Source: Macrostomum lignano (lineage: Eukaryota). From it: a stretch of DNA of 64,000 bases. Under the pieces are notes generated by a model, which was not told the origin of the DNA, did not search any database, and worked only from the letters and a program-made list of their open reading frames with translations. Below, piece after piece: positions 2 to 62,076 of the stretch. The translations under genes were made by a program, and so were the position numbers. Each line of letters opens with the position of its first letter. Position 1 is the first letter of the stretch. The stretch is from positions 98,501 to 162,500 of the forward strand of contig NIVC01001308.1 in the NCBI GenBank assembly GCA_002269645.1, read 5' to 3'.

Positions 2-3000
2 CAACATCAAACAGCCGTTATCGCCGAACAAAAAAGACGAAACGAACAAGCCTCAGCCAGATGTTACTACTGCGGACAAGAAGGACATTATCAGATTAAT
101 TGTCCTCATTGGTCAACAAGATACGACAAATCACGACAGATATTCAACAATCAGAAGCCGCAGAAACCATGGCAGCAATATCAAAATCGCCAACAACAAG
201 GCATAAGACGCTTCGGAAATGATAGACGCTTCGGAAATAATGACCGCTCCGGAAATAATGGCCGCTTCGGAAACGAAGGCCGCTTCAGAAATAATGGCTA
301 CAGACCGCGAAACGCCAGATACATGCCCAAGCAACCAACGCAAGCGATGCAACGATACGCGAATGCCATCACGTACACACCGGAAAATGAGCAGCAGGAA
401 CAGCAAGTGTTCACAATTGACGACTTGGAAATGGACTTCACAGTCCCGGAACTTGACATCAGCTTGATCGAAAAGAAGACGACGCACGAGGACAACACTG
501 ACAACACAGAAGAGGCGAATGAAACCGAAATGATCAAATTAAAAGAGACCACCGGAGACAGCAGAGAAAACAGGAAGAAAGTAAACCACAAGAAAAGGGA
601 GGAGACGGAGAGCGACACCGGCAACGAAGAAAAGATAAAGACTGGCAGAGAAAACAACTATGAATCGACAACAGTGGATGACGACAAAACAAGCACAAAA
701 GACAAAGAAATGAAGGAAGAAGAAGAATGTATAAGTTACGGCAACGATCACGACTGCGACGTGCATGATGACACGAACGGATACCGAGCCGAAGAAGGAA
801 TGCAGGAAGAACTGAGAGCGGAAAATCTAAGCTCCGACAGCGATCAAGGCTACGAAATCCAATGGAAAGATGAAGAAATGGAAAAAGAACAGATAAAAGA
901 AAAGCCGAGTTCCGACAGCGACGAATGCTACGAGATCCGATACAAACGAAACGGTGAAGCCTATATTCAAACGGTCGACTACAAGGCAGAAAAAAGATAC
1001 CAAACGCAATGGAGTGAAACAACGGAAACATCGGAAGAAGCTGCAGACGAAGATACTGAAATAACCAAAGAGCAAAGCAAATCAGAAGCCTTCCGCCTGA
1101 ATCAGCCAATGGAACAACCGAAAGAATACGATGCGGACATGGAGGATAACGAATGGCAATCGCGGCCAATGCCAGCAAAGACAACGGCAAGGTCCAAGAA
1201 GTGGAAAAACTGGCTATACTGGATCATCGTGATACTACTGATAGCAGTAGTCGCCAAAGCAACGGCAACGGAAAAGCCAATGATTTGTCCAACGGAGGCG
1301 CATATCCAACCGATGATCTACAAGATACCAACCGACATCAAATGCAGCTACTTCAAGACAAACCAGACGAAGCCAAAGAAGATTACACTCGATCTCTACA
1401 AGGCTAACATCAAGAAGCATCGACAACTCGGAATAGTGTGCTTTAGAGACAAGCACCTAGTGGAAAAAGTTTGGCGAGGACAATGGAACAGAATTCGATT
1501 TTGGCAACACGAACTACATGTGTCGCACGCTGAATGTCTACAATGGAACCAAACACTGTTCTCAAAGGATGGTCAGCTAGAACCGGATGAGAAAGTGGGG
1601 GAGGCACAACTTTACCGAACAAAGAACTCAGCAAACGGACGATATGTACACTTTTCGGAAACATGGACTAACTACATGACACGAAACAGTTACCTAATCA
1701 GGAATATTCCATTCTACCACAATCCTTTTGAAAAAATGGAGTCGCTACAACTGCAATTAAGCGACTGCCGATACAGCAAAGGATGGTGTCCAACGCCGAT
1801 ACTGCGGAATGAGGAACTATACAGCTTACCGTTGAGTCCAACATATCATCAAGACTATCGATGGCAAATTATACGCAGAGGCGACTCACGATATGAAGAA
1901 CCATCTAAGTCACGACAATACTTCCTCGCGTGGGAAGTTGGGCCGGAAATTGACTGCAAGCTGCAAAAGTATCACACAGTTGAAGGAGGTCTACTGTCAA
2001 ATACGTTTTTGGCAAAGTCAGGAGACTTGGCACTGACGTTTCAAAAGAAACCAGTCGAGCAAAAACTGAAATGCAAGGATACAGACAAGACACTATTCAT
2101 CTCGGAACAAGAGATACCAGTCTACGTAAAAGATGACGACAAACAAACCTTTCTGGCAATCATCAACGGAACGTATCAACAGCAGGAACAACAGAACAGA
2201 CGACGACGTGACATCGAACGTCCCAAACTGGTATCAAACCGACTACTGTCAGCAAAGATAACGGCTTTGGATCACAATCTACACAACCAGTTAAACCACT
2301 TGCATCGAACACTGGTCCAGCTAACTTGCAAAATGCACGCAATCAACTTAAATTATGCCAGACAAAACTACTATGTCAACCCTACGATGACTTTTCGTAA
2401 AATCACCGGAATGACGAACGTTTTGGCAGTTCCAATATACGAGCATCTGTTGATATACAAGTGCACGCCGATACAGCACTTCAACATCTTGCCGTCAAAC
2501 ACGTCAACAACCTGCTACGATAAGCCAAGGATTGAAGCGTTCTACGAAGGAAGACGAATTCAAGGATTCTTGGACACGGTACACAACATCATCGTTGGCA
2601 CCGCAATACCGAGACCTTGCACCACAGCAGCAAACTACTATCAACTGGACAATGCACTACACGTCATCAAAACAACTGGAACGACAGCAAACATCACAGA
2701 ACCGGAAGTAATCGTCGACGAAAACTACGACATGGAGGATTTGAAAATCCGATTCAACAGAACGAAGTATACGCCATTCGCCGATATCCAACTTGACGAG
2801 ATAACACCAGGATGGACGATCAACGACTTCTTGCAAGCGTTCATCACCCAACGCAAGATGATTCACCAGCTGTTCACAAGAAAGGACAAAGAAACCGGGA
2901 CAGGAAGATTTCCCGTCCTTGTTTCAATGGACAGCGCCATCAAATCATTTTGGACAAACAGCTTCTGGGAGCTGCTAAATGGAAGAGGCAGTCTCTATCA

Positions 3001-3982
3001 AGGATTCATCTTCTACGGTGCTTGCATTGTGTGGATTGTCACGGCAATCTTCGTCATTTCATCGATCGTACGGTGCCTCAGTCAAACTTGTCCAAGAGCT
3101 AAGAAGACAGTGAATGCCATAATGCAAAGAACGACAACGGAAGGCGACAACAGTTTAGAACTAACAGAAACTGCACATCGTGAGGTTCAAGGGCAACCGA
3201 CACTAGCAACGCGGCTATATCCATCGATTCCGACAACACCAACGGCACCAAGGATACAACCACCCAACTATCAAGCAGAACAGCACGAGCCAAAATGGCC
3301 GGAAAACTACGTCTGTACGCTACACGCCGAGATTGGCAAAGCAATGGCTCAGGTCATTGTCAACAACTTGCCATGTCGAGCACTGCTGGATTCAGGCAGC
3401 TCGATCACAGTCATCTCGCAACAATTATGCAACAAGCTACGACTCGCGGTACGACCAGCAGCAATCGCAGTTGCAGGAGCAGGAGGACATTCACTCAACA
3501 TACTAGGAAAAGCAGATATCGACTTGAAAATTGCTAATAAACAGCTGACGGTCCCGACGTACATCATCGACAGACTACCAAACCAAGACGTCATCGTTGG
3601 AATAGACACGTTCAAACAGCTTCGACTACCATTGACCTTCGACTTCAACAAGCAAACGTTTAGGATCGACACGGTGGAGCAACCACTGATCAATCAGATT
3701 CGAGTACTACCGAAAGTAACTCTGCAGCAAGATGTCATCATCCAGCCTGAAAGCGCATGCTGGGTCAGAGCGAAAGCGACCAGCGCGGCAGATGAAGCAA
3801 TGATATTTGATCCGCACAGGAGAGTCACGGCGAAACATCAAATCATGATGCCTACGGCACTAGTGCTGGTTGCAAAAGATAAACAGCTGCCAGTACAAAT
3901 CTTCAACCCGAACGCGGAAATGGTTCATCTACGACAAGGAATGTGCATCGGTCATCTCAACACTCAGCATCGGTTATGCTGA
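2..3982 (+). CDS. Gag(NC)-Env-protease polyprotein, 5'-truncated by window edge
   Basis: Frame of the 323..3982 ORF has no stop back to base 2 (translated by hand): CYYCGQEGHYQINC at 62-103; hydrophobic WLYWIIVILLIAVVAKATA 1211-1267; Cys-rich ectodomain with several N-x-S/T sequons; RRRR 2198-2209; TM GFIFYGACIVWIVTAIFVISSIV 3002-3070; LLDSGSSITVIS protease; dUTPase-like tail about 3700-3970. Confidence 0.9.
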   Translation, partial: QHQTAVIAEQKRRNEQASARCYYCGQEGHYQINCPHWSTRYDKSRQIFNNQKPQKPWQQYQNRQQQGIRRFGNDRRFGNNDRSGNNGRFGNEGRFRNNGYRPRNARYMPKQPTQAMQRYANAITYTPENEQQEQQVFTIDDLEMDFTVPELDISLIEKKTTHEDNTDNTEEANETEMIKLKETTGDSRENRKKVNHKKREETESDTGNEEKIKTGRENNYESTTVDDDKTSTKDKEMKEEEECISYGNDHDCDVHDDTNGYRAEEGMQEELRAENLSSDSDQGYEIQWKDEEMEKEQIKEKPSSDSDECYEIRYKRNGEAYIQTVDYKAEKRYQTQWSETTETSEEAADEDTEITKEQSKSEAFRLNQPMEQPKEYDADMEDNEWQSRPMPAKTTARSKKWKNWLYWIIVILLIAVVAKATATEKPMICPTEAHIQPMIYKIPTDIKCSYFKTNQTKPKKITLDLYKANIKKHRQLGIVCFRDKHLVEKVWRGQWNRIRFWQHELHVSHAECLQWNQTLFSKDGQLEPDEKVGEAQLYRTKNSANGRYVHFSETWTNYMTRNSYLIRNIPFYHNPFEKMESLQLQLSDCRYSKGWCPTPILRNEELYSLPLSPTYHQDYRWQIIRRGDSRYEEPSKSRQYFLAWEVGPEIDCKLQKYHTVEGGLLSNTFLAKSGDLALTFQKKPVEQKLKCKDTDKTLFISEQEIPVYVKDDDKQTFLAIINGTYQQQEQQNRRRRDIERPKLVSNRLLSAKITALDHNLHNQLNHLHRTLVQLTCKMHAINLNYARQNYYVNPTMTFRKITGMTNVLAVPIYEHLLIYKCTPIQHFNILPSNTSTTCYDKPRIEAFYEGRRIQGFLDTVHNIIVGTAIPRPCTTAANYYQLDNALHVIKTTGTTANITEPEVIVDENYDMEDLKIRFNRTKYTPFADIQLDEITPGWTINDFLQAFITQRKMIHQLFTRKDKETGTGRFPVLVSMDSAIKSFWTNSFWELLNGRGSLYQGFIFYGACIVWIVTAIFVISSIVRCLSQTCPRAKKTVNAIMQRTTTEGDNSLELTETAHREVQGQPTLATRLYPSIPTTPTAPRIQPPNYQAEQHEPKWPENYVCTLHAEIGKAMAQVIVNNLPCRALLDSGSSITVISQQLCNKLRLAVRPAAIAVAGAGGHSLNILGKADIDLKIANKQLTVPTYIIDRLPNQDVIVGIDTFKQLRLPLTFDFNKQTFRIDTVEQPLINQIRVLPKVTLQQDVIIQPESACWVRAKATSAADEAMIFDPHRRVTAKHQIMMPTALVLVAKDKQLPVQIFNPNAEMVHLRQGMCIGHLNTQHRLC

Positions 3983-6852
3983 TTGAGCACGCGACTCCAC
4001 GAATAACGGAGGAAGAGTTCCAAAAGAAAATCAACCTGGACGACAGCCCGATTACGGAACAACAAAAGAAGAAAGTTCGACAACTGTTGTGGAAGTACAA
4101 CGAAGCCTTCTGCCATCATGATTACGACATCGGACGAGCTAAAGACATTAAACAGGAAATCAAGCTTCTACCGCACACGGAACCAATTCAGTGCAAGCCG
4201 TACCCGATCGCCAAGCATCTGCAACAACACTTTGACGAAATCATCGATAAAATGCTAAAGCACGGCATCATCAGCAAAGCTATTTCGGCTTACTCCTCAC
4301 CGTGCCTACTGGTACAAAAGAAGGAGACTAACGAAAGACGACTCGTATGCGACTTCAGACTGTTGAACAAGTACATACCGACGGATCAGCAAAGCCTACC
4401 GAAGATCTCCGAACTATTAGCGAAGCTCAACACGGCAAAACTGTTCACGGTATTCGACCTACGTCATGGATTTTGGCAAATAGAAATCGACAAGGAATCG
4501 CGCCAGTACACAGCCTTCAAGACCTACAATGGACAAGTATACGAGTACAATCGATCGCCGATGGGACTTAGCAACAGCCCAGCAACGATGAGTCGACTCA
4601 CAGCATACATGCTTGCAGGATGCACGAACCTGCTGCACTATGTCGACGACATTTTGGCCTATGGAGAGGATTTCGAGCGACTCTATGAAGCTACGGAGAA
4701 GGCCCTGGCGCTCATTCAACGCCAAGGTCTTAAGCTGCAACCGACGAAATGCAAATTCTTCCGAGACAACGTGCGTTACCTAGGACACCAAGTGACAGCC
4801 AGAGGAATTTCACCGGACCCAGACAACGTGGAGAAGGTAAAAAGGTTTCCTACGCCAACCAGTATAACGAAGGTCCAATCATTCCTTGGACTTGCGCAAT
4901 ACTTCAGGAAGTTCTTACCTAACTTCGCAAAGACAGCAAAGCCACTGTACGACCTGCTCAAGTTCGACAAATGGAAGCAAGACAACTGGACACAAAGACA
5001 ACAGGAAAGTTTCGACGAAATTAAACGACAGCTGACATCAGACGCACTGCTACAGCATCCGGACTTCGACAAGCCCTTCATCATCGAGACAGACGCCTCA
5101 GGAACGGGACTCGGAGCAGTCCTACTACAGGAAACCGAGGACAAGAAGGAACGACCTATTGCTTACGTCAGTCGAGCACTCAAACCAAATGAGACAAAGT
5201 GGTCAGCTACGGAACGAGAGCTACTAGGAGTCTTGTTCGCCCTGCGACAGTTTCATTACTACATCTATGGCTCTCCAATACAGACGATAGTACGCACGGA
5301 TCATGCACCATTGACCTACGTCGTAACTACAAAAGGACAGACCAACAACCGACTCATCAGGATGACACTCAAGATCCAGGACTACAACTACAAACTCGTC
5401 TACAAACCAGGAATTACCAACAAAGCCGCGGACGCCCTGTCAAGAGCCTATGAAGTCAACGCCATTCATCCAATCCCTAACATCAAGGAGTTGGTGGATG
5501 AAACCGAGCGCGATAACTTCTACCAATCGGTTAAAGACGACGACAAGAACATCAAACTCAGTCCCATGGAACGAAAATTCCTACGCAAGCAACGACAACA
5601 CCTAACAATCAATAAGTCACGGCTCTACTGGATGAGCGACAATAAACCTAAGATCTACGTACCATATTCGTTTCGGCAAGCAATTCTCAACGAGCTGCAC
5701 GACAACCCACTCGCCGGACACCTGTCGGCCGCAAAGACCATCGCGAGAGTGGAACAATACTACTTTTGGCCAACTATGTATGGCGACATCAAGCAGTATT
5801 GCAACAACTGCCATTCATGTGCTGCATCAAAGACAGGACGACGACAGAAACCACAGCTACAGTCCATTCCGAAGTCGACTACAATGGACTGTCTAAGCAT
5901 CGACATCACCGGACCACTGCCACCGAGCTGTCTCCAGGGCATCGCCTACACCTACATCCTAACCGCCTTGGACATCTTCTCGAAGTTTGCTATTGCCATA
6001 CCGATACCGGACATCACAGCTCAGACAATAGCAATGAGTTTCTTCAATGAAATCATTTGCAAGTACGGCACGCCGAAGAACCTCACCTCGGACAACGGAT
6101 CGCAGTTTACGTCTCAACTATTTCAGCAAGTTGTGAAGATTCTCAACATTACGCAGATCTACACATCGACCTACAATCCGAAGGCAAACATGGTTGAACG
6201 GTTTCACCGCAACCTGCACGAGATGATTACACATTTCGCGCACCAACAGCCGGAAGACTGGATCATCTACCTGCAATCTGTAACAATGGCTTACAACAGC
6301 GCTATTCATCGATCAACAGACAATACGCCATTCTTCCTAATGTTTGGACGAGACTTCCAACCGCCGAATCTGCTCGCACAGCAATTGCTACCATCGCAGT
6401 ACGTGGAAGTACCGACTTCCATTCAGAAATTCGTCACGCAACTACACCTCGCATGGAAGATCGCCAAGCACAACATTGACAACCAGGTGGCTCTGACCAC
6501 CGGCAACGACGCGAGATGGACAACCCTGACGGCCGGCGACATCGTTTACCTGCACTACCCGCCACAGCAGACGCATAAACATGCACAGAAGTATAAAGGA
6601 CCCTATCGAGTGGTCCAACTAACGTCACCAACAACGGCACGCCTGGCTAATGTGCAAGATCCACATCAGCATCAATTTTACGTGCACATTCATCGACTAA
6701 AGAAGATCAACACTGACACCGCGACGTTTCTACCCACATTGGACAACGCCGATCGCACGCGTTCAACGAACCGCCACATCGCGACGAAGCACGAGGAGAC
6801 TCAAACGACAGATGTGAGCCAGCCACATGGCTACAACCTACGACCACGCTAG
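3943..6852 (+). CDS. pol: Pol: reverse transcriptase - RNase H - integrase (no chromodomain seen)
   Basis: YSSPCLLVQKK, RLVCDFRLLN, FDLRHGFWQI, PMGLSNSP, YVDD; RNase H IETDASGTGLGAVL and ERELLGV; integrase LHDNPLAGH...CHSC, IDITGP, SDNGSQF, VERFHRNL; GPY/F motif KYKGPYRV. Confidence 0.97.
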   Translation: MHRSSQHSASVMLIEHATPRITEEEFQKKINLDDSPITEQQKKKVRQLLWKYNEAFCHHDYDIGRAKDIKQEIKLLPHTEPIQCKPYPIAKHLQQHFDEIIDKMLKHGIISKAISAYSSPCLLVQKKETNERRLVCDFRLLNKYIPTDQQSLPKISELLAKLNTAKLFTVFDLRHGFWQIEIDKESRQYTAFKTYNGQVYEYNRSPMGLSNSPATMSRLTAYMLAGCTNLLHYVDDILAYGEDFERLYEATEKALALIQRQGLKLQPTKCKFFRDNVRYLGHQVTARGISPDPDNVEKVKRFPTPTSITKVQSFLGLAQYFRKFLPNFAKTAKPLYDLLKFDKWKQDNWTQRQQESFDEIKRQLTSDALLQHPDFDKPFIIETDASGTGLGAVLLQETEDKKERPIAYVSRALKPNETKWSATERELLGVLFALRQFHYYIYGSPIQTIVRTDHAPLTYVVTTKGQTNNRLIRMTLKIQDYNYKLVYKPGITNKAADALSRAYEVNAIHPIPNIKELVDETERDNFYQSVKDDDKNIKLSPMERKFLRKQRQHLTINKSRLYWMSDNKPKIYVPYSFRQAILNELHDNPLAGHLSAAKTIARVEQYYFWPTMYGDIKQYCNNCHSCAASKTGRRQKPQLQSIPKSTTMDCLSIDITGPLPPSCLQGIAYTYILTALDIFSKFAIAIPIPDITAQTIAMSFFNEIICKYGTPKNLTSDNGSQFTSQLFQQVVKILNITQIYTSTYNPKANMVERFHRNLHEMITHFAHQQPEDWIIYLQSVTMAYNSAIHRSTDNTPFFLMFGRDFQPPNLLAQQLLPSQYVEVPTSIQKFVTQLHLAWKIAKHNIDNQVALTTGNDARWTTLTAGDIVYLHYPPQQTHKHAQKYKGPYRVVQLTSPTTARLANVQDPHQHQFYVHIHRLKKINTDTATFLPTLDNADRTRSTNRHIATKHEETQTTDVSQPHGYNLRPR

Positions 6853-6972: not shown

Positions 6973-7407
6973 ATGGGCAACGCACTGTCGAAACAGGCGC
7001 CCCAACTTCAGCAGCTATATGACTGCCCGATATGTTTAGCTGATGACTTGGCTGTCAAGCCACCGACTATTTGCATCAATGGACATAAAATTTGCGGACA
7101 ATGTTTAAGTGATTCACACTATATTCAGCCCTGGCAGAATTGTCCCCTCTGTAGAGATAGTTTGCGACAATGCGCCTATTGTTATTCTTGGCGCACGTTT
7201 CAATATTGTAACCAGTAACATTTTATTTGCATGCACGGTTTGAAGCAAACCGCTAGTAGGGGCATTATAGGATGCCCCTTATGTAATAGTATGCCGCGAG
7301 ACTGCACGTTTCGAAAGTGGTGTCGTATCAAACCTGATGCCACTCGATGTCTACGCGATATTCGAGTTTTGACCGCAATATGTACTGAAAAGTTTTTAGA
7401 GTTTTGA
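6973..7407 (+). CDS. Accessory ORF3: MGNALSK N-terminus plus two tandem C3HC4-like RING fingers; in-frame TAA at 7216-7218 interrupts the second finger
   Basis: RING1 CPIC-x12-CINGHKICGQC-x12-CPLC; read-through gives CAYC-x8-CNQ*HFICMHG-x12-CPLC and continues to TGA at 7405-7407. Confidence 0.75.
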
Positions 7408-7535: not shown

Positions 7536-8399
7536 TGTAGAGTGTTCTACCGCCCGTTAAAAAAGGTAAAAAGAAGATAATCGTATAATGCTACTATAAG
7601 TAAGTAAGTACACGCATGTACGCCTAAGTTTTGAATGAATCACGCTACCAGAAAAAGATGTTACCAAAATGATACGCAATAAGCCATTTCCCCTTTTAGC
7701 GCAACACGTGAATTGTCATGATACTATTTTGGATCAAAAAACTTGCCTATAAATACAAGCGATCTGAAGCGGTACCGGAGCCATTCTCCCCACGGAAGAG
7801 GAGCGCTCCGAAGAGGAAGCCTTAGGAGGACTTCCTGATATACCAAGTCAAACGAGACTCGGTCGAGTTGTTGCGGTAAGCCTTCCTTATTTGCGCCCGT
7901 TGTGTTAGAGACGTCTCGCTCAAGTCTCTTGAGACTTGAGTCTATTTGAGTCTGTTGAGACTCTTGAGTCTGTTTAGACTCCATTGGTTGCAGTCTCCAG
8001 AAGGACTGCCCCTGATAGATCTTAGAGGACTATCAGTGGTTTCCGGAGCTATACCTAGAGTGCATAGAGGCACTGCTAGAAGAAGGAGGCTTAATTCAAA
8101 CCGCTGTTCGGCGCAGGGTACCCATTGTTGCTACGAGGCCTCTGATTGGTCCTGACGGAAGATACCGGCCGGAAGAAATTATCGGAAGTACAAGAGGAAC
8201 CAGGACCAGAGCAACTGAAGAATCAAGGCGCCTGATCTACGAGATCTACTGACGAGTTCCTAGCGAGTACTACTCAAGAAATTCAAATCCGGATTAAAGG
8301 TAATTAAATACCTTCGTTTGACTTACTGGGTTGCCTAGCTGTTGAGCTAGAAGTGAGTGTTCTTTGATTACCAAAAGTCGTGTAATAAGGAACACATCA
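7536..8399 (+). repeat. 3' LTR (about 864 bp, TGTAG...CATCA)
   Basis: Termini match inverted copies at 12966-13797 and 11390 onward; TATAAA at 7748-7753. Confidence 0.88.
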
Positions 8400-9157
8400 C
8401 CACCTCCGGAATCTTTAGTCCTGTCCTTTGTGCGGCAGGCATCACTTTTATGTCCCACTCGACCGCACTTGCTGCACGTCTTGCTACGGTAGGGGCAGTT
8501 CTTTGCCCAGTGATCTTGTGCATTGCAGCGGAAGCATCCAGATTGATTGTTTCTGTTGTTCTTCTCTGACAAGCCGTCTGTCAGATTTTTACTGGCTCTC
8601 GAAGACTTCACCGCCTGGATTGCACCAGTTGACGAAATTGTCACCACACCTCTTTCCGCTGCTTCCATCGCAGTCGCAAGGGTAAGTGCTCCAGTTAGTG
8701 TCAGTGTGTCTTCTTGCAACAGACGCTGCTGTGTCAGGCGATTCCTTAGGCCGACAACGAACCTGTCTCTCAGTGCCTCGTCCAAGAATTCATTAAAACC
8801 ACACGTGGCAGCCAACTTCCGCAGACTTGCGATGAAATCGCTCACATTTTCTCCTTCATGTTGGGCTCTGCTGTGGAAGTTGAATCTCTCGACAACGATC
8901 TTAGGCATTGGGTTAAAATGCTCCCTCAGGGCCTTGACTTGATCGTCGAAGTTCACATCCTTGGGCTTCTTTGGTGACAGCAGGTTGCGGAGCAATTGAT
9001 AGCAGTCATTACCAATCACTGTAATCAGATTTGCTCGCTTATGTGCCTCCTCGGTCACTTTGTTTACGACGAGAAACTGCTCGAGTCGTTCTTCATAAGC
9101 TTCCCATTGCTCCGGTTTAGCCACGTCGAACTCTCCGATTTTTACACTCGTCGCCAT
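8400..9157 (-). mobile_element. gag: gag of a second, unrelated Gypsy element (two CCHC knuckles), cut off at 8400 by the env-bearing element
   Basis: MATSVKIGEFD...WEAYEERLEQF...LRDRFVVGL...CFRCNAQDHWAKNC...CSKCGRVGHKSDAC; the track ORF tail (DVFLITRLL...) is read-through into the LTR. Confidence 0.88.
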
Positions 9158-9300
9158 TGTTATGTCCTCTTCTTCTGCTTCTATACCGACTATTGCCTCC
9201 AGGCTACCATCTGACATCAAAGTCAAGTCGAAGAAGCATTATTTAAAATACGAGCTGTTCACAAGCTTTATTTGCCTCTAGCCGGCGCACGTCTTGTTTT
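9147..9300 (-). repeat. PBS (TGGCGACGAG) and adjoining 5' LTR end (...CATAACA) of the second Gypsy element; far LTR boundary not resolved
   Basis: Minus strand reads ACATAACA-A-TGGCGACGAG with the gag ATG overlapping the PBS; AATAAA on minus strand near 9270. Confidence 0.6.
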
Positions 9301-32586: not shown

Positions 32587-34437
32587 TTATTGTCCACCAG
32601 GATATGGTGCACCACCTTGCTGTGCAACCGGATATGGTCCACCACCTGGTTGTGCACCAGGATATGGTGCACCACCTGGCTGTGCACCAGGATATGGTGC
32701 ACCACCTGACTGTGCACCAGGATATGGGGCAGAACCAGGCTGCACGCCAGGGTAAGAAGCATCGCCAAAAAAGCCACCCGAAATTCCGGCACCACCAGCG
32801 GCTGACGGAGCGTCGTTGCGAACTCGAGGCGGACCAGCTCGAATTCCGCGACGCCTCATCCACTCGCACACCTGATTCGGAAGCTCCGCCAGTACCTCCT
32901 TCGCCAAGGCATACCTGCTGCGATCAATGTTGCCACCCTGAATGAAACGACGCAAAGGAACGAATTGGACGACATCTCTTTCGGCGATCATCGACCCGCA
33001 GCGAAGTCGTTTGTCGTCTGAGTCCAGATCCTTCATCGCAGAGAAGTCCTCGTTTCCGACACCAACTATGATTATGGACATCGGTAGAGATGACGCCTTG
33101 ATGATTGCCTGCTTCGTCTTCTCGAAGTCCGTGATGATTCCGTCAGTGATGATCAGCAGTACAAAGTACTGAGCTCCTGTCTGGTGAGCCGCAGCCATTG
33201 ACGCTACGTGGTTGATCACGGGCGAAAAGTTTGTCGGACCGTACAGTCGCACCGCTCTGATGCAAGACCGATAGGCCGCGAGAAGACCTAGCATTCCTGC
33301 GCAGTACGGGTTTTCGGGCTGCAGAGTCAGCGAGAACGCATCCTGAACTCCCGAGAACATTGGAGGCAACAGAGCTCCGAAGCCCAGTCCGGGAAACTGC
33401 TTGTCTGAGTCGTAGTCCTGCACAATCTCTCCTACCGAAATTATCGCCAGCTCGTACTGGTTCGGTCGGCCGTCGGCGCTCACGTGGTGCAGCGAGCGAG
33501 GGTCTCTGGGGTCTCCGTTGCTGCCCGTGAAGTCGATTGCAACCGTGAAGTGCAGCTCAGTGCCGCCCTGAATGTAGTCGACGAACGAGTCGATGGTCTC
33601 GATTCCGATCTGGCTGAACACGATGGTTCCAGCCGACTTTTTCTTCTTGCTGATGAGGGTTCGTTGGGCGGAGCGGCTCCGAGCCACCTCCTGCTCCAAG
33701 CTCTCCAGGCTGCTGTAAAAGCTTCCTATCAGATCATGAGAGCCGTCTCCATCATAATCATAGCAATCAAATCGTAGGATTAAACGCTTATTACCACGAC
33801 AGATTCGAGCGACTGGTACAGAAAACATTGCCCATCGTGGGTTCAAGTTATTCTTAATAACCTCCGTTCGATGCACAAGAGACCAATTGCGAACGTGGTT
33901 TAACTCGTCTTCGCTTGTTACATCTTCAAGTGGTTGATAGATTTCAAGAAATGGATCTGATTTGCCAAGAAAGTCTTTTTTATCAAGTTTGTGCCCTTCA
34001 ATTTGAAAGTTAACAACTTGCTTGCACTCTTGAACTTCTACACAGGTTACAGTAATGATGGACGTCTTCGAACTTTTTGTCCTGCAAAGTTTAGTTTCGA
34101 ATCGACGTCGGCTTACAAGCTCGCCGATCGAAGTCTCCAACTCGCCGAGAAAGTCGTGCTCAGACAGTCGAGCACTCGGACTGTCCAAGTCGTAAATTTG
34201 AAACTTCACCAGCTGACGCTCCTCGAACATGAAGTCGACAATGAACCGATGGCTGAATTCGGGATCAAGCGTGTTGTTCAGTCTCTCAGTTCTGCCGATT
34301 TCTTGAAAGTTGGAAGTTCCCGGCTGGCGCAGGAACAGGACGCACTGAGGATCTGACTTGGAGGTGACGTCACGGTCAGGCAGATTTCTGCAGGACACGC
34401 TGATCTCAACGCGACTGGTTAGGCTTGGGCTGGACAT
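32587..34437 (-). CDS. CPNE: Copine A (C2A-C2B-vWA, PYPG-repeat tail), intronless, about 616 aa
   Basis: SKSDPQCV, KKDFLGKSDPFLEI, VAIDFTGSNG, LLIITDGIITD, SIIIVGVG, RDVVQFVP; first ATG at 34437. Confidence 0.95.
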   Translation of the reverse strand: MSSPSLTSRVEISVSCRNLPDRDVTSKSDPQCVLFLRQPGTSNFQEIGRTERLNNTLDPEFSHRFIVDFMFEERQLVKFQIYDLDSPSARLSEHDFLGELETSIGELVSRRRFETKLCRTKSSKTSIITVTCVEVQECKQVVNFQIEGHKLDKKDFLGKSDPFLEIYQPLEDVTSEDELNHVRNWSLVHRTEVIKNNLNPRWAMFSVPVARICRGNKRLILRFDCYDYDGDGSHDLIGSFYSSLESLEQEVARSRSAQRTLISKKKKSAGTIVFSQIGIETIDSFVDYIQGGTELHFTVAIDFTGSNGDPRDPRSLHHVSADGRPNQYELAIISVGEIVQDYDSDKQFPGLGFGALLPPMFSGVQDAFSLTLQPENPYCAGMLGLLAAYRSCIRAVRLYGPTNFSPVINHVASMAAAHQTGAQYFVLLIITDGIITDFEKTKQAIIKASSLPMSIIIVGVGNEDFSAMKDLDSDDKRLRCGSMIAERDVVQFVPLRRFIQGGNIDRSRYALAKEVLAELPNQVCEWMRRRGIRAGPPRVRNDAPSAAGGAGISGGFFGDASYPGVQPGSAPYPGAQSGGAPYPGAQPGGAPYPGAQPGGGPYPVAQQGGAPYPGGQ

Positions 34438-35863
34438 CTGTAATTTTTTGCACAAATTTTCTATCGCTTAAGTGTTGAAAAATTGTAGGAACATCTCAAC
34501 TTAAGCCATACTGACTGACAATTAGGCTAGTTCTGTCGGCTGTAAACTTAAGTATTGCGTTGGATATAGCATTGAGACACAGTCGGGGCTTATATTATAT
34601 ATTAAAATATTGAACCTTAAAATACAGAAGAAACAAACCTTTATTTTGCAGCCAATTTACCGCCAAAAAATTAAGCTAAATATAGAACCATGGCGGACGC
34701 ACCAAGTTTAATCTAGTAAAAGCAAGGTAGAAATAAAAATTGCTTGCTTCATTTACGCAACTATGTAGGTCATTGCTTCACTTTCGTCGCTTTGCGAAAA
34801 GAGTTAGTCATCTTTTCAGCAAAGCTTGCTACAGGCAAGAGAGAGACACTTAAGCGCCTGTTCAATAACCAAACACACGTAGCACTGAAGCAAACTCGTA
34901 ACAATATAATGCTTTCGTATACGTGATGCTTGCATACTACGAATTTCTAGCGACTGCCAAAAGCACAAAATATCTTTACTGTCTTGTTGTGTGGGTTAGT
35001 ATGCCAGAACCTTGTGCAAACATTCAGTGTAGCTATTTCAACTCGATTTGTAAGGCCACATTCGAATACACGCTGAGCATTCAAGTGTATGCTTATCGAG
35101 AAAATCTAAAAATAGCCTGCTTCTCAAACTTAATAAGATATGGTAGCTACATTTAGATTCAATGTACGCTCGTGCAGTATATTCATCGCCATATACTAAA
35201 TTTAGTATACAATTAATATATTCTGAAACTCTGAATAGCTTCCAGAAGGTCGTCTAGCGTAATCACTTATTCATAGTTTCAGTTAAAATAAATTGACTAA
35301 AAAGCAATGTTTTTCGCCAGGAAAACCTCTGGGAGCTGTACGTATATTATTCACAACTAGCGTAAACTGGCAAAACTTCACGGATCGCAGGACAGTAACA
35401 AAAAACAAATAATTATAAAGGAATAAAGACGGATTGCTTTTTTAACGCTGAATAAACACAACTGGAACCTCCATCGGACATTGTATGGATGTGTATGGAT
35501 CCTAAAAATATGTGTATGGATAGGCTTGTACATATCCTTTATAGCTTACTTTTCGTTAATGTAAGCAATGGTGGTATGAGTAGAACCGAGAGCTTCGAAC
35601 CGGATTGAAACATAGAGAGAAATATATGGCCGGGAAATTGCGTTGTAGGCAAAGTTCTGCGTGTAACTACTGATTGCTTCTCTTAGAGAGAAATCACCTC
35701 ATTGGTTACTATACAGTGAAGAATCTATTAAACATGTGTATTAATATGATACAAAAGCTTTGATTTAGTAAATACCTGGAGGATTAAGTATTGTATACGT
35801 CATTCCAAACTATTGTAGTAGTGTCAGTGAATGGAGCACACACGGCACAGAGGGAGGCGTGGG

Positions 35864-37742: not shown

Positions 37743-39644
37743 TCAAGGAGCACTGGGAGGCACACCCAGATACGGAGGTACTGAAGCCTGGGCGCCGCCA
37801 GAAGCGGATGGATAGGCCGGCGGTGGTGCAGTCGGAGCCGCAGCTCCAGGAGCATAGACTGGACCTGCAGGATAGCCAGGCTGAGGGGCGCCAGGATATC
37901 CTGGACCCGATTGAGGCACACCGGGATACGGAGCACCAGGATATTGAGCTCCTCCTGGTTGAGTGCCAGGGTACGGAGCGCTTCCAGGAATTCCGGCACC
38001 ACCAGCAACTAACGGAGCGTCGTTGCGAACTCGAGGCGGACCAGCTCGAATTCCGCGACGCCTCATCCACTCGCACACCTGATTCGGAAGCTCCGCCAGT
38101 ACCTCCTTCGCCAAGGCATACCTGCTGCGATCAATGCTGCCACCCTGAATGAAACGACGCAAAGGAACGAATTGGACGACATCTCTTTCGGCGATCATCG
38201 ACCCGCAACGAAGTCGTTTGTCGTCGGAGTCGAGCTCCTCCATCGCAGAGAAGTCCTCGTCTCCGACACCAACTATGATTATGGACATCGGTAGAGATGA
38301 CGCCTTGATGATTGCCTGCTTCGTCTTCTCGAAGTCCGTGATGATTCCGTCAGTGATGATCAGCAGTACAAAGTACTGAGCTCCTGTCTGGTGAGCCGCA
38401 GCCATTGACGCTACGTGGTTGATCACGGGCGAAAAGTTTGTCGGGCCGTACAGTCGCACCGCTCTGATGCAAGACCGATAGGCCGCGAGAAGACCTGGCA
38501 TTCCTGCGCAGTACGGGTTTTCGGACTGCAGAGTCAGCGAGAACGCATCCTGAACTCCCGAGAACATTGGAGGCAACAGAGCTCCGAAGCCCAGTCCGGG
38601 AAACTGCTTGTCTGAGTCGTAGTCCTGCACAATCTCTCCTACCGAAATTATCGCCAGCTCGTACTGGTTCGGTCGGCCGTCGGCGCTCACGTGGTGCAGC
38701 GAGCGAGGGTCTCTGGGGTCTCCATTGCTACCCGTGAAGTCGATTGCAACCGTGAAGTGCAGCTCAGTGCCGCCCTGAATGTAGTCGACGAACGAGTCGA
38801 TGGTCTCGATTCCGATCTGGCTGAACACGATGGTTCCAGCCGACTTTTTCTTCTTGCTGATGAGGGTTCGTTGGGCGGAGCGGCTCCGGGCCACCTCCTG
38901 CTCCAAGCTCTCCAGACTGCTGTAAAAGCTGCCGATAAAATCGTGCGACCCGTCGCTGTCGTAGTCGTGGCAGTCGAAGCGAAGTAGCAGCTGCCTGTTT
39001 CCGCGGCACAAACGGTTCAGTGGAACCAAAAATTTGGCCCATCGCGGGTTCAAATTGTTCTTGATTACTTCGGTACGATGTACAAGTGTCCAATGTCGGA
39101 CTTTATTGACTTCATTTTCACTCGTAATTTCCTCCATTGGCTGATAAATTTCAAGGTAAGGATCGGATTTTCCAAGAAAGTCTTTTTTGTCAAGCTTTTT
39201 TCCTTCGGCAATGAAACTGACTATTTGTTTGCACTCTTGAAGCTCGAAACACGTGATTATAATTGTGGACTTCTTGTGTCCAGTTTTGGACAAAGTAGTT
39301 TCGAATCGACGTCGGCTTACAAGCTCGCCGATCGAAGTCTCTAACTCGCCGAGAAAGTCGTGTTCAGACAGTCGAGCACTCGGACTGTCCAAGTCGTAAA
39401 TTTGAAACTTCACCAGCTGACGCTCCTCGAACATGAAGTCGACAATGAACCGATGGCTGAATTCGGGATCAAGCGTGTTGTTCAGCTTTTCAGTTCTGCC
39501 GATTTCTTGAAAATTAGAAGTTCCCGGCTGGCGCAGGAACAGGACGCACTGGGGATCTGACTTGGAGGTGACGTCGCGGTCAGGCAGATTTCTGCAGGAC
39601 ACGCTGATCTCAACGCGACTGGTGAGGCTTGGGCCGGACATCAT
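37743..39644 (-). CDS. CPNE: Copine B, intronless, about 633 aa, tail with PTAP, PPAY and terminal PSAP
   Basis: Same copine motifs; first ATG at 39644. Confidence 0.95.
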   Translation of the reverse strand: MMSGPSLTSRVEISVSCRNLPDRDVTSKSDPQCVLFLRQPGTSNFQEIGRTEKLNNTLDPEFSHRFIVDFMFEERQLVKFQIYDLDSPSARLSEHDFLGELETSIGELVSRRRFETTLSKTGHKKSTIIITCFELQECKQIVSFIAEGKKLDKKDFLGKSDPYLEIYQPMEEITSENEVNKVRHWTLVHRTEVIKNNLNPRWAKFLVPLNRLCRGNRQLLLRFDCHDYDSDGSHDFIGSFYSSLESLEQEVARSRSAQRTLISKKKKSAGTIVFSQIGIETIDSFVDYIQGGTELHFTVAIDFTGSNGDPRDPRSLHHVSADGRPNQYELAIISVGEIVQDYDSDKQFPGLGFGALLPPMFSGVQDAFSLTLQSENPYCAGMPGLLAAYRSCIRAVRLYGPTNFSPVINHVASMAAAHQTGAQYFVLLIITDGIITDFEKTKQAIIKASSLPMSIIIVGVGDEDFSAMEELDSDDKRLRCGSMIAERDVVQFVPLRRFIQGGSIDRSRYALAKEVLAELPNQVCEWMRRRGIRAGPPRVRNDAPLVAGGAGIPGSAPYPGTQPGGAQYPGAPYPGVPQSGPGYPGAPQPGYPAGPVYAPGAAAPTAPPPAYPSASGGAQASVPPYLGVPPSAP

Positions 39645-41145
39645 GCACAAGTTTGTACCGATTAAACTCGATTCGGTTTAATACAGATTACCGCCCGTGT
39701 AATCAGTGTAGCTTTACTTTACTTGCATAGAAAAATGTCACCCTCATAATGCTACAATCGATGAGCAAAGTAAACATCCTGCCCTAAAATAGGTTTGCTG
39801 TTATCGTACTTTACTCGTTCAGGATCTGAAGAATGAGATTATATGCCTATGCAAGAGGCCATTGGCAATGAACTAATCTTAGTAATTACGACCTAGTTCT
39901 AGTTTAGGCATGCAAACTTGGCTGAAGTTACTATTTTAGAAAGATTAACTGGAACGTTGTCAAGAAGCAGTAAATGATTTATTAATTAATAATTCTATCG
40001 TACTTTTGCACAATTCCATAAGGAACAATTTAAATATTTGGAAAATCAGCACTTTTTGAATAAGCGAGATTTTTTTAGGCCTTGATCAAGTAATATAACG
40101 AAGCAAAAATATAATGAATATACAATTTCAGCATTTAGCTTGACGGCAATGTCGGAATAGCAGACGTACCGGTAGGTATTCAAAACCAGTAAATATTAAT
40201 TTCGTGGATACATGATTTAAAAACATACAATTGCGGCGAAATTGGATTGGCAAATAGTAGCAGTATAAATAGAGTGGGAAAAGTATTTTAATTAAAGTAC
40301 AAAACAGTTCACGTCTTATCCGTCGGATGCATTAATCTTTTCTTGTGGAAAGCAAAAGCAGAATAACTATTTAGTAACAAGAATTATATTTTCATAACTA
40401 CTGACGAGCAGCACTTTAAATTACGATTTCCAATAGCATTCTATGGAAAAATTAATAATTTCGATAATATTTTTATGTAAACTCGTAGTCACTGCTTGCT
40501 ACGTAAGGAAAAATGATCTTTCTAACCCGTCAGACAGAAAATTAGGCTTTTTTATTGCCTATACTCAATACAAATTAAAGCCAGCTTAGATCATTAACAG
40601 CTAGCAGAAACTCTGCCGATTACAATAGAAAACCAATTTGAATCTTTTTTAGGCATCTCAACTTTATGACAATTTGGTTAGAATGCATTCGAGTTGCTGA
40701 TACTGGTATAGAATTTCTATTCTTTTCAGTGTGGCCATATGTGACGACGTCGTTAGCATCTTAAATTTTTAGTTTCTATGTGAGTTTTTATTACTTAAAA
40801 TTATTATAGTTGATTAATTTGCAGGTTCCCCAGCCATTAATTTAATGTAATTTATTTAGAAAAAATGTACTTAAGTTTTATTTATTTAAGTCCAAGTTAT
40901 TACTACTTTTTTGATAGATATCTTAGGTTTAAATGAATCGGATTTCCCCGCCAATTTAAATTGTTGCCTCGCGCTCGTTTTGTACTCTCCTCAACTCGGC
41001 ATTTTGTCTCGTACCATGCGTGTCAACACTACTAATAATTGAACTAGCTAACCAATAAATAAATACTAATAAATAATTAACAAATAATTAATTAATCGCT
41101 GACTACATCTCGAACTCGCTACGTCACACATAGATAAGTGAAACG

Positions 41146-41761: not shown

Positions 41762-43900
41762 TTAAGGAGCACTGGGCTGCGTCCCTCCGGCTACAGAGTA
41801 ATTTTGAGCCAAGTGGCCATAGCCGGCTTGACGAGAGCTCACTTGAATACCGGGGTAATTTGCGGCGCCATACTGGCCTGGACCAGTAGGATATCCTCCA
41901 ACATTTTGATAAGCACCAGGATACCCTGCGCCACCAGTAGGAGCACCAGGATACCCTGCGCCACCCGTAGGGGCACCAGGATACCCTGCGCCACCCGTAG
42001 GGGCACCAGGATACCCTGCGCCACCCGCAGGGGCACCAGGATACCCTGCGCCACCCGTAGGGGCACCAGGATACCCTGCGCCACCCGCAGGGGCACCAGG
42101 ATACCCTGCGCGACCCGCAGGGGCACCAGGATACCCTGCGCCACCCGCAGGGGCACCAGGATACACTGCGCCACCCGTAGGGACACCAGGATAAGAAGGA
42201 GCTGAAGCAGGAGAGCCATCAGTACCTGGTGCGGCAGTAAATGAGGATGGGGCAACAGGGCCTGACGCTGGAACATTTGAATCAGATCGCACTTTAGGCG
42301 GACCAGCTCGAATTCCGCGACGCCTCATCCACTCGCACACCTGATTCGGAAGCTCCGCCAGTACCTCCTTCGCCAAGGCATACCTGCTGCGATCAATGCT
42401 GCCACCCTGAATGAAGCGACGCAAAGGAACGAACTGAACAATGTCTCTCTCAGCGATCATCGAACCGCAGCGAAGTCGTTTGTCGTCGGAGTCGAGCTCC
42501 TCCATCGCAGAGAAGTCCTCGTCTCCGACACCAACTATGATTATGGACATCGGTAGAAATGACGCCTTGATGATTGCCTGCTTCGTCTTCTCGAAGTCCG
42601 TGATGATTCCGTCAGTGATGATCAGCAGTACAAAGTACTGAGCTCCTGTCTGGTGAGCCGCAGCCATTGACGCTACGTGGTTGATCACGGGCGAAAAGTT
42701 TGTCGGGCCGTACAGTCGCACCGCTCTGATGCAAGACCGATAGGCCGCGAGAAGACCTGGCATTCCTGCGCAGTACGGGTTTTCGGGCTGCAGAGTCAGC
42801 GAGAACGCATCCTGAACTCCCGAGAACATTGGAGGCAACAGAGCTCCGAAGCCCAGTCCGGGAAACTGCTTGTCTGAGTCGTAGTCCTGCACAATCTCTC
42901 CTACCGAAATTATCGCCAGCTCGTACTGGTTCGGTCGGCCGTCGGCGCTCACGTGGTGCAGCGAGCGAGGGTCTCTGGGGTCTCCGTTGCTGCCCGTGAA
43001 GTCGATTGCAACCGTGAAGTGCAGCTCAGTGCCGCCCTGAATGTAGTCGACGAACGAGTCGATGGTCTCGATTCCGATCTGGCTGAACACGATGGTTCCA
43101 GCCGACTTTTTCTTCTTGCTGATGAGGGTTCGTTGGGCGGAGCGGCTCCGGGCCACCTCCTGCTCCAAGCTCTCCAGACTGCTGTAAAAGCTGCCGATAA
43201 AATCGTGCGACCCGTCGCTGTCGTAGTCGTGGCAGTCGAAGCGAAGTAGCAGCTGCCTGTTTCCGCGGCACAAACGGTTCAGTGGAATCGAGAATGGAGC
43301 CCATTTTGGGTTTAAATTCTTTTTAATGAATTCGGTTCTGTGCACCAAGACCCAACTGCGAACTCTGGGTACTTCTGATTCAGTTTGTATTTCATCCATC
43401 GGCTGATAAATCTCCAGAAAAGGGTCAGACTTGCCAAAGAAGTCTTTCTTGTCAAGTTTGACGCCTTCGACGCGAAAATTGGCAATTAGTTTGCACTCCT
43501 GAAGCTCCAAGCAGGTCAGTATAATGAGAGATTTTTTTGTACTGCCAGTCTTGGTCAAAGCCGCCTCGTACTGTCGCCGACTGACAAGTTCACCAACAGT
43601 GGTCTCAAGTTCGCCTAAAAAGTCATGGTCCTGCAGGGCTGCGCGCGAGCTGTCAACATCGTAGAGCCGAAAAATGACTACCTGTCTTTCCTCGAAGCAG
43701 AAGTCTACTTGAAACTTGTGATTGAATTGCGGGTTTAGGGTGTTCTGTATGCATTCAGTGCGACCAAATTCATGCGTTGATGTTGGCGTTTTCATGAACA
43801 GGACACACATTGGATCAGATTTGGACATGACATCACGATCTGGCAAGTTCTTGCAAGAGACAATGATCTCCACCCTGCTAGTGAGCTGAGGAGCTGCCAT
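41762..43900 (-). CDS. CPNE: Copine C, intronless, 712 aa, 27-bp GYPGAPxGGA repeat tail, terminal PSAP
   Basis: Same copine motifs; about 9 tandem 27-bp units at about 41920-42190. Confidence 0.95.
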   Translation of the reverse strand: MAAPQLTSRVEIIVSCKNLPDRDVMSKSDPMCVLFMKTPTSTHEFGRTECIQNTLNPQFNHKFQVDFCFEERQVVIFRLYDVDSSRAALQDHDFLGELETTVGELVSRRQYEAALTKTGSTKKSLIILTCLELQECKLIANFRVEGVKLDKKDFFGKSDPFLEIYQPMDEIQTESEVPRVRSWVLVHRTEFIKKNLNPKWAPFSIPLNRLCRGNRQLLLRFDCHDYDSDGSHDFIGSFYSSLESLEQEVARSRSAQRTLISKKKKSAGTIVFSQIGIETIDSFVDYIQGGTELHFTVAIDFTGSNGDPRDPRSLHHVSADGRPNQYELAIISVGEIVQDYDSDKQFPGLGFGALLPPMFSGVQDAFSLTLQPENPYCAGMPGLLAAYRSCIRAVRLYGPTNFSPVINHVASMAAAHQTGAQYFVLLIITDGIITDFEKTKQAIIKASFLPMSIIIVGVGDEDFSAMEELDSDDKRLRCGSMIAERDIVQFVPLRRFIQGGSIDRSRYALAKEVLAELPNQVCEWMRRRGIRAGPPKVRSDSNVPASGPVAPSSFTAAPGTDGSPASAPSYPGVPTGGAVYPGAPAGGAGYPGAPAGRAGYPGAPAGGAGYPGAPTGGAGYPGAPAGGAGYPGAPTGGAGYPGAPTGGAGYPGAPTGGAGYPGAYQNVGGYPTGPGQYGAANYPGIQVSSRQAGYGHLAQNYSVAGGTQPSAP

Positions 43901-46900
43901 GTCTGTGAATGTTCATAAATTGTAGCAACTTATTATTATTTTACTAGCCTATAGTAGAGAAATTTAACAAGATCAAAAATGTTTTGAAAAAATCAGGAAA
44001 ACTATGCATTTATGATGTGTTGAGTGCATGCTTAGGGATTAGTGGAATATGTATCTAGCTACTACTTTTTTGACCAGCTATGGCTAATATGTCTATATTG
44101 TAACATTGATTTATTATTAACTTAAAGACCCTAACTAACCTAAATTTGAGCTAACAACAGAAAAGGATTTCAATTAGTTGCAAAGCTGTAAATATGATCA
44201 ATTTGTTACTAAAATGAACACATATTCATTAGTATTATATATAGGGTTAATATTTATACTTAAAAACTTCAAAAATAGCGAAGTCCTAACTGTATATTAT
44301 GCTAAGTATATAGCCTACTAAAAGAATATAATATCCTATTCATAGGCAAGTTCTAGCTAGTGCTATCATAAACCAACTATAAAAATATATATGCAAGCCT
44401 AATTCTAGTCTTATTATATACAAAAGGTTTAATCTTATGCATAAGACCAAAATTATTATGGCTAGATATTTTAAAATATTTTAATAAATATTTTATCAAT
44501 GTTTTTGGCACAAATTTGAATTAAAAAAACAATACTAGATATAGGCCTATGGCATACTAAACCTAAGTTTTTTATCAATTGATTTTAAAAATATTAGTTT
44601 GTATAAAAATGCTAATCAGAAACAACCTAGACCTAGACCTTAATGATAATATATGTAGAATATAAAGTAATAATTTATCATAGAATTAATAATAGAAACA
44701 ATTTAAGGCAATTTATTTATACATTTAAGTGAATTAGGCTAAGCTAAACCATAAAAATTTATTTTAGTCTGAGTAATATTCCTAAGCAAATATAAACAAA
44801 AAATATAAGGTATTTATAATAAACTATATAATATAAAGTTAATAGACACTTCAAAACGCATTTATCATTAGATAGGGCCTAGGGGCTTAGGGGCCTATAC
44901 AGTATAAATAAAAAGTTTATTATCAACTTCCAATTAGCTAAGCCCAAAAGGTATAGAAGTGAAAAATGCTGTTTTAAAAATTTGATCCAAGTTGCATTTA
45001 GATTTAAGCCATTAGTATTAAAAGTGCCAAATGTTAGGCTTAGACATAGCTAGGCTTAAGTAAGGATTTGAAATCTAGTCTATGAATCTATCAATTGTTT
45101 TTTAATAAAAATAATATAAATTTACTTAATTTTTATGGGCTAGCCTACACTACACATAATTTATTTCTTTTCCTATTATTTATGGGCGTCAGTTTTAATG
45201 ACACTGTAATTTTGTTAGAATGGTCTTTATGCAGTATGCAGCCAGTACTACTATTGCCATAATTATTGCTACAAGGAATAGGCCTGGCTAGTGACATTAG
45301 AAGAAAAAAGTACTCGTAAAATAAAACACTTTACTTAGGTTAACTAATTTGAAGTTATAGCCAAGGACGCAGAATCATTGTGGCCATAGGCCTATTATCC
45401 TAGGGGCTAGGCCTAAAACGCATTAATAAATTACTTGCCCTAAGGGTGCCCTAATGCTTAGGCCCTATCTTGAAAGCATTACCTAGTACTAGTAGGTCAC
45501 TAGGGCTATCACATGTGACGTGTGTATGTGGATCGTGGATGTAATATTTTCTAAAAATCAATGCAAGGACCCATGTTAAAAATGCCGTTTGTACACACTT
45601 ATCAATTTAAACTAAATATTATAAACTATACTATAGCAAAGGTTTGATTTAAATAACGATTAATATTGCTGTATTAAGAAAAAAGATTAATAAATATTAA
45701 TTTTTGAACCATAGTCCTTTAAGGTTTACTGTTCGTGTATCGTGTTAACTAACTTCCCAGTCCAGGACAACTTAAGCAGATCTAGGACAGGAAAATTGGA
45801 AAATATTAGGAGGCAGGTTTTACCGAAAAAATATGTTACGGAGTTGCGATTAATCGAATTATTATTAGTTACCAAGTTCAGGGCCAAGAATTCAGCAGGG
45901 CATTACCGCGTACCTGCATTCTAATCTTGCCAGCTCTGCCTATTTTCTCATCTGCCATTGAATCGTGTGGCATGAAGTGTGAGTAGAGATTGCGCCTGTC
46001 GCAGGGGATAGAATAGAAGCTGAGGATCAGAGTGCAAAATTACTGAGTATGATCGCCGAGTACATCCAAATATAAATGATCATAACACAGTAACACTATG
46101 TATTTCGAAGTACAGTGTAATCGAGCCCCATCACATGTACATGAAGGAGGAAAGATATTAGAAAGTCGTTATCTATTATCTACCCTTGTGATCCTGGGCT
46201 TAAGGGAATTGTAGCCTAGAATCGCCAAACGACTATAAATGGGGGTCATTTATATCCAAATAAAGTCCTCGTTTACAACACTTGTGTGGCGTTCGATCAT
46301 TCGCGACCTGGCCTTGAGGCGCGCCTTGTGACGCTGAACGCGTATTCTGTTGTTGTTGCTGTACTAGAAGATGAGCAGTTAACTGCTTCCAATAAGATAC
46401 TGCCATACTGTGACAAATAACTATATAGTTCTTATCGATCTGTATAGTGTATTTTTTGGAAATTTAACCAAATATTTTCTTAGAAACGAATTGTTTTATT
46501 TCCCGTCTTTCTGCACTTATATTTTGTCCTTGTGTAAGTACACTGTAATGTGCATCAAATATGTGCACCAGTTGAGCTGCTGTCTGCTGCTGACGTTACA
46601 TGTACGTCCTACTCGTGAAAAGCTATATGATCGTAGCTATAATTGCTATAAAATCCAATTGTGACTTGACTTGGATCATTTGTTGTGGTACAATTGTAGA
46701 GTGCACTGTACAAGTATATATGGAAGTAGTTCTTCTTACGCGGGATGCTTAGGCATGATGTAGGACGCATGCTGGCCGTAAGTGGGTTGTAAGCCGGAGG
46801 TACATGTGGCGGGGCGTAATCTGGGAAAAAAATTTATAGCGTGTTCAAGCCCACAAGCATTCCAGTTTATGTTCTTAGAACGCGTCATGTAAGTCCACTC

Positions 46901-53158: not shown

Positions 53159-62076
<8,918 letters not shown>

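Follow-up and report, generated by a model that had tools for sequence, protein, structure and literature searches.

Late-domain-like motifs on the predicted cytosolic Env tail of a young gag-env-pol Ty3/gypsy element in Macrostomum lignano

In this study, we analysed a 64,000-nt stretch of the Macrostomum lignano genome (contig NIVC01001308.1; hereafter the window), which begins inside an LTR element read on the plus strand. The first open frame (2..3982) holds the 3′ part of gag, env and the protease, and extends 255 codons further upstream, beyond the window. Along it follow a CCHC zinc knuckle of the Gag nucleocapsid (NC; 62..109; Pfam PF00098, E 6e-4), a putative internal signal/anchor segment (TM1, 1214..1270), an Env ectodomain with six N-glycosylation sequons (1271..2992) and a candidate furin site, RRRR (2198..2209), the Env transmembrane anchor (TM2, 3002..3067), a predicted cytosolic tail or linker (3068..3301) and an aspartic protease (3344..3634; PF13650, E 9e-10). 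The RT-RNaseH-integrase frame lies at 3883..6852, which gives the Pol order PR-RT-RH-IN with env between gag and pol; in the window copy the frame is interrupted between PR and RT, while other copies run as a single frame of up to 2538 codons. Downstream are an accessory RING-finger ORF that ends early at 81 aa (6973..7218; up to 222 aa in other copies) and the 3′ LTR of 864 nt (7536..8399), with a CCAC target-site duplication. The LTRs have TG..CA ends and a primer-binding site is present. The 5′ LTR, which lies upstream of the window, and the 3′ LTR are 100% identical, so the insertion is very recent.

The window element is a young Ty3/gypsy element of a published type. GAG-ENV-POL elements with a gB-type Env have been described in Platyhelminthes, Nematoda and Bryozoa (Chary & Hayashi, eLife 2026, PMC13524379), and LTR length and primer site of the window family agree with the supplement row for Platyhelminthes_Rhabditophora_Mlig_errantivirus_2, a match by these features rather than by sequence. 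With these errantiviruses the window element shares gene order, a gB-type Env flanked by two hydrophobic segments, the host group, the 864-nt LTR and the primer-binding site. That work analyses their ectodomains. A protein 96% identical to that of the window element is likewise labelled Macrostomum lignano. The insertion itself is nested in the gag of another, env-less LTR element (window 8294-9238, minus strand; G000:C1308:95814-96077), whose protease was found on the far side of the nested insertion. Elsewhere in the window, exons of a P-type ATPase, read as Na/K-type, occupy 54031-56154 (minus strand), and many minisatellite arrays with units of 8-30 nt are spread over 18600-62000.

The Env ectodomain is predicted to have a class III, gB-like fold. 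We modelled it with AlphaFold2 from 14 sequences (pLDDT 70, pTM 0.41) and searched with the model in Foldseek, where every listed match was a herpesvirus gB, the best with an E value of 2e-19 at a TM-score of only about 0.25; a Pfam match to PF24664 (E 2e-5) lay below the cut-off. By hydropathy, the ectodomain comprises 570 aa flanked by two hydrophobic segments. Net charge is +5 before and −1 after the first segment, and 0 before and +4 after the second. Together, hydropathy and charge bias predict that the tail is cytosolic and forms part of a disordered segment, which agrees with the placement of the motifs on a membrane-anchored Env tail in an earlier reading made from the sequence alone.

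This tail carries matches to all three patterns of viral late domains, P(T/S)AP, YPxnL/I and PPxY. The ALIX-type motif LYPSI (3215..3229), the TSG101-type motif PTAP (3239..3250) and the NEDD4/WW-type motif PPNY (3260..3271) translate exactly as first reported and span 19 residues (aa 1072-1090 of frame 2..3982), after the hydrophobic segment at aa 998-1028 and before the protease DSG at aa 1129. The 1326-aa frame has no further late-motif matches, and none occurs in the pol frame of 989 aa. LYPSI had been regarded as an imperfect match to the ALIX consensus; we consider it a fair one, because YPxL/I is the published PalA/ALIX motif and the YPxI of yellow fever virus NS3 binds ALIX (PMC10532540). 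When the 80-aa tail was shuffled, all three motifs appeared together in 1 of 200,000 trials, each singly in 1.4-2.5%; as this test is post hoc, the comparative tests below carry the weight. An overlapping ORF constraining the motif block was rejected: over the 300-nt stretch examined, every other frame is interrupted.

Within the window family (family A), the motifs are nearly invariant. In 50 of the 65 long family matches, the window copy among them, we found [LM]YPSI in 50/50 copies, PTAP in 49/50 and PPxY in 50/50, the latter with a variable x position. One predicted family protein, P0002, is devoid of the whole motif block. Counted in 42 gap-free copies, the shared variants comprised 17 amino-acid and 14 silent changes for the first half of the tail, 4 and 8 for the motif block, 16 and 58 for Env, and 11 and 56 for the protease, so that a variable N-terminal half of the tail adjoins a more constant motif block. 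At the level of sites within family A, variation affected 2 of 13 motif sites versus 19 of 57 other tail sites, a difference that is not significant (p=0.18). The within-family level says little, given the closeness of the copies and the reported redundancy of the published assembly (PMC12801592).

More informative are the diverged Env families of the same genome, represented by a cross-family set of 20 loci, one of them env-less, to which family H was added through a protease-family search and hence not by tail likeness. PTAP is present in 3/4 loci of family B, together with IYP[KR]I in 4/4; PSAP in 7/7 family C loci with a readable tail (one further locus has none); PSAP and LYPTL in 3/3 loci of family D; PSAP in 2/2 of family E; LYPKI alone in 2/2 of family G; and PSAP with IYPTI in 3/3 of family H. 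Thus, P(T/S)AP occurs in six of the seven env families and hydrophobic-YPx[LI] in five. The seven families amount to only about three independent clades (A/B, C/D/E and G/H), between which RT identity is 37-45%; both motifs are present in all three, and their order is reversed between the sister families A and B. PPxY, by contrast, is found in the tail of family A only and is absent from the tails of the other six. The conservation of the motifs against a divergent tail background, which the sequence-only reading had named as a check, therefore holds for P(T/S)AP and YPx[LI], which recur in tails that cannot be aligned, but not for PPxY with its one family in seven. P(T/S)AP and YPx[LI] are the core of this lineage, gained, lost and reordered, and PPxY is an add-on of family A. 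As to the Env proteins themselves, those of families C, D and E are about 210-270 aa longer than those of A, B and G, the added block lying in the middle of the ectodomain.

Families A and B also differ in what follows pol. Between pol and the 3′ LTR both have an array of accessory ORFs, one to three or more in number and about 200-225 aa long, each of which combines a Sina-like RING with another Cys/His cluster (L176, L178, L207, L208, L209, L210); these are possibly ubiquitin ligases encoded by the element. A RING pattern after pol was not found in seven loci of families C, D, E, G and H, some of which have other ORFs of 160-310 aa. The term "RING" does not occur in the main text of PMC13524379 or in PMC5408684. 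An Atlas match of the RING ORF to arenavirus Z (score 0.90, 139 shared features) serves as a lead only. Because a Met-Gly start is confined to family A and the RING ORFs examined contain no late motifs, we rejected their interpretation as a Z-like myristoylated matrix protein.

To relatives outside the genome we extended the comparison from the best 150 matches, after removal of nine same-genome or near-identical proteins. Together with six families, this gave 81 Env-bearing proteins, of which 24 were truncated, too short or without a detected anchor and 57 contributed a tail. Among the 51 tails from outside the genome, P[TS]AP occurred 6 times versus 0.41 expected from shuffles, PPxY 6 versus 1.02 and YPx[LI] 7 versus 1.47 (each p <= 0.001), which amounts to a 5-15-fold excess of each motif type. 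Eleven scrambled control motifs stayed at background (0-2 versus 0.4-1.5 expected), local shuffling left the enrichment unchanged, and for each motif the canonical order ranked first among its permutations, approached only by overlapping forms such as [TS]APP. At least one motif was present in 22 of all 57 tails (3.5 expected), at least two in 6, and none in 35. All three were found together in a single tail, so the three-motif cluster, though real in family A, is not general. In 20 tails a motif lies beyond the first 20 residues; on a quick, midpoint-rooted FastTree phylogeny of the Env C-terminal part, which carries no support values, these tails are scattered, but a branch comprising 27 sequences contains just two of them.

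The enrichment is regional as well. Per 1000 aa, P[TS]AP amounts to 2.06 in tails, 0.21 in the NC-Env spacer, 0.15 in ectodomains, 0.04 in Pol and 0 in Gag; this is 19-fold over shuffles in tails, background in Pol and zero in 10,734 Gag residues. The motif is also 5-fold over shuffles in the lumenal ectodomains (4 versus 0.76), so some of its excess is background, and PPxY is mildly raised in the NC-Env spacer (3 versus 0.71). Two Gag-Env proteins, P0055 and P0160, end after their motif-bearing tail, which consequently is not a protease leader in these cases. P0160, whose tail has PSAP, additionally contains LYPNL in a proline-rich Gag N-terminus. Near the tail-protease junction, a Trp-Pro dipeptide is found 19 times versus 7 expected over the 57 tails, perhaps as a mark of a cleavage site or of the N-terminus of the protease. 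Further searches were of limited yield: word-index protein searches matched only near-identical proteins (one and two matches) and no stand-alone gB-type Env tails; a metagenome scan with a single protein gave 54 pattern matches, of which 0 were confirmed; and no GT..AG joint was among 11 listed in contigs of 4 of 24 runs, which are RNA by guess, a count with no bearing on expression or splicing.

Late domains are known from Gag and matrix proteins, frequently in combination (PMC8402826, PMC2958808): MLV Gag has PSAP, LYPAL and PPPY, HIV-1 p6 has PTAP and YPXnL, EIAV p9 has YPXL, and the motifs are interchangeable (PMC8402826). The family A tail has the same three motif classes, but these follow the Env anchor in what would be a single membrane-threaded precursor, and their late-domain role is predicted from sequence. 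Late domains on a membrane protein have a viral precedent in NS3 of bluetongue virus, an integral membrane glycoprotein that recruits TSG101 and NEDD4 by its PSAP and PPRY motifs so that the virus is released (PMC7409164); NS3, however, is a non-structural protein of an unrelated dsRNA virus and not a fusogen, whereas the family A motifs are on a fusogen tail. Foamy viruses resemble our proposal in that their Gag is devoid of signals for membrane targeting and Env is required for budding (PMC7828637), yet their Env is a separate protein and their PSAP late domain is located in Gag (PMC3705263). The motifs of West Nile virus E are disputed, with an effect independent of ALIX and TSG101 (PMC10532540). 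Our literature search, which covered few subscription papers, found no publication on late domains in a Ty3/gypsy Env tail, and the terms ESCRT, late domain, cytoplasmic, RING and ubiquitin do not occur in the main text of PMC13524379, nor do the corresponding terms in the text, supplements aside, of bioRxiv 10.1101/2025.03.14.642691. Element type and motif classes are each already known.

Placement of such motifs on Env had suggested that a Gag function was reassigned to it. The family A Gag and its NC-Env spacer indeed contain no P(T/S)AP or PPxY, and Gag is without an N-terminal Gly (Gly2); apart from a single NYPAL inside the predicted capsid region, family A has nothing at the usual late-domain site in Gag or matrix. 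Nevertheless, reassignment does not follow. Gag and Env are parts of one precursor, and families B, C and D carry PPxY, YPPI or PSAP after NC, that is, also on the Gag side. Further, the env-less control (14 families, 64 loci; a relaxed protease pattern found 76 of 77 loci) showed one PTAP in 510 residues of NC-protease linker, leaving 13 of 14 families without a motif, and one PPxY in 4,383 residues of Gag. In the env-less family L150, Gag ends in PTAP three residues before the stop, a p6-like position without an envelope. No env-less family is a close RT relative of the window element, as the top RT matches all carry env or belong to env families, and for this reason a history of motifs moved from Gag is not established by the comparison. 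Motif gain along with env fits as well as reassignment from Gag.

Candidate partners for the tail are found among the host genes: a TSG101 UEV domain (E 7e-39), an ALIX V domain and many HECT domains, the last counted as HECT ligases in general, are encoded in the genome. The host UEV (L077:1468-1869) aligns to human TSG101 at E 8e-45, with Tyr68, Met95, Val141 and Ser143 kept and two substitutions, Y63H and F142V, at positions that we take to be residues of the TSG101 pocket. In the window, two of three tandem copine-like host ORFs on the minus strand (37743-39677 and 41762-43912) end in PSAP directly before the stop, following Gly/Tyr/Pro repeats, and the third (32587-34467) has no terminal PSAP; the two endings suggest host use of the same motif.

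We consider it very likely that the tail motifs are under selection and likely that their partners are ESCRT factors; that the outcome is particle scission rather than turnover is somewhat less certain, if still probable. Taken together, the late-domain-like module on the tail of this known element type is real and probably selected. The reading that we favour, by a little over even chances, is that the tail recruits TSG101 and ALIX for membrane scission of enveloped particles. Accepting the predicted topology, a single Gag-Env-Pol precursor, which intact copies encode in one frame, would be threaded twice through the membrane. TM1 would direct Env to the ER lumen while Gag stayed cytosolic, so that a Gag without N-terminal Gly would be held by TM1, Env would face the lumen, and tail and Pol would hang off TM2; with this arrangement, assembly would have to occur on the membrane, and scission of the particle would be directed away from the cytosol. 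Env trimers and the Gag lattice would cluster the tail, which could recruit TSG101 through PTAP, ALIX through YPxI and, in family A, also a NEDD4-type ligase through PPxY. From the known biology of these motifs, the arrival of ESCRT-III and VPS4 would then sever the neck, either at the plasma membrane or on budding into endosomes. As the protease adjoins the tail, fast scission could matter by analogy with HIV, in which delayed budding lets the protease act too early (PMC4900648).

The earlier claim that the element makes enveloped extracellular particles nonetheless reaches beyond the motifs, since membrane proteins also reach multivesicular bodies through these motifs. This is the main competing explanation, to which we give a minor but appreciable share of the probability: the motifs would be cargo-sorting signals that direct Env or excess precursor to multivesicular bodies, for degradation or exosome-like release, and so limit fusogen at the surface. 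The same host factors would be engaged, but genome-containing particles would not be cut off by the motifs. A late domain in E-cadherin is reportedly one example of sorting through a membrane-protein tail. PTAP, PPxY and YPxnL on such tails are known to sort in cells, for instance ALIX and PAR1 (PMC3341166), and HSV gB goes to exosomes through ubiquitin (PMC10532540), while lysines are present in the tail here and many relatives, with 35 motif-free tails, lack the motifs. Classical endocytic and lysosomal signals, on the other hand, are not enriched, whether generic YxxPhi (Y[^P]x[LIMFV], 24 versus 24.7 expected) or dileucine (5 versus 4.8). Moreover, with a one-piece precursor, sorting into intraluminal vesicles would take Gag and Pol along and would thus be budding by another name.

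It appears less probable still that the block is a p6-like piece of the structural precursor that would act in budding, but as an old Gag C-terminal late domain displaced downstream by the insertion of env and perhaps freed by the protease, with nothing handed to Env. HIV p6 sits just before the protease, as the block does here. The Gag-terminal PTAP of L150 and the motifs after NC in families B, C and D would suit such an origin, and lentiviral L domains are C-terminal in Gag (PMC3705263). Against it, the linkers of 13 env-less families are empty, albeit in families of which none is a close RT relative, the turnover of motif order and identity points to repeated gain, and both P0055 and P0160 terminate with the tail.

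Scission of particles and sorting alike presuppose an ESCRT role, which would be lacking if the motifs were by-products of a proline-rich disordered linker or bound SH3/WW adaptors or AP-2. The tails are 10% Pro, YPSI also fits YxxPhi, the within-family site test was not significant and P[TS]AP is in excess in ectodomains; but the excess in tails persists under composition-keeping global and local shuffles, is not shared by scrambled controls, ranks canonical orders first among permutations and, for YPx[LI], is specific to Pro, and we regard this explanation as very unlikely. An AP-2 endocytosis signal as the main reading is rejected, because YPx[LI] numbers 11 versus 1.7 expected in the tails in which Y[^P]x[LIMFV] stays at its expectation.

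The motifs suggest how a little-studied, env-carrying group of Ty3/gypsy elements may leave its cell, and, being probably selected, they name three candidate host factors in a worm with a very recent insertion bearing identical LTRs. In the broadest version of our proposal, which we advance tentatively and hold to be somewhat short of an even chance, a branch of invertebrate Ty3/gypsy elements makes one membrane-threaded Gag-Env-Pol precursor that buds through ESCRT, with late domains that arose repeatedly on a gB-type fusogen tail. If true, this would provide indirect evidence that gB-type elements make enveloped particles, with their late domains on the fusogen tail, and would describe an envelope-driven exit route unlike the Gag-driven budding of retroviruses. 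It would also supply a sequence mark separating lineages that leave the cell from those confined to it.
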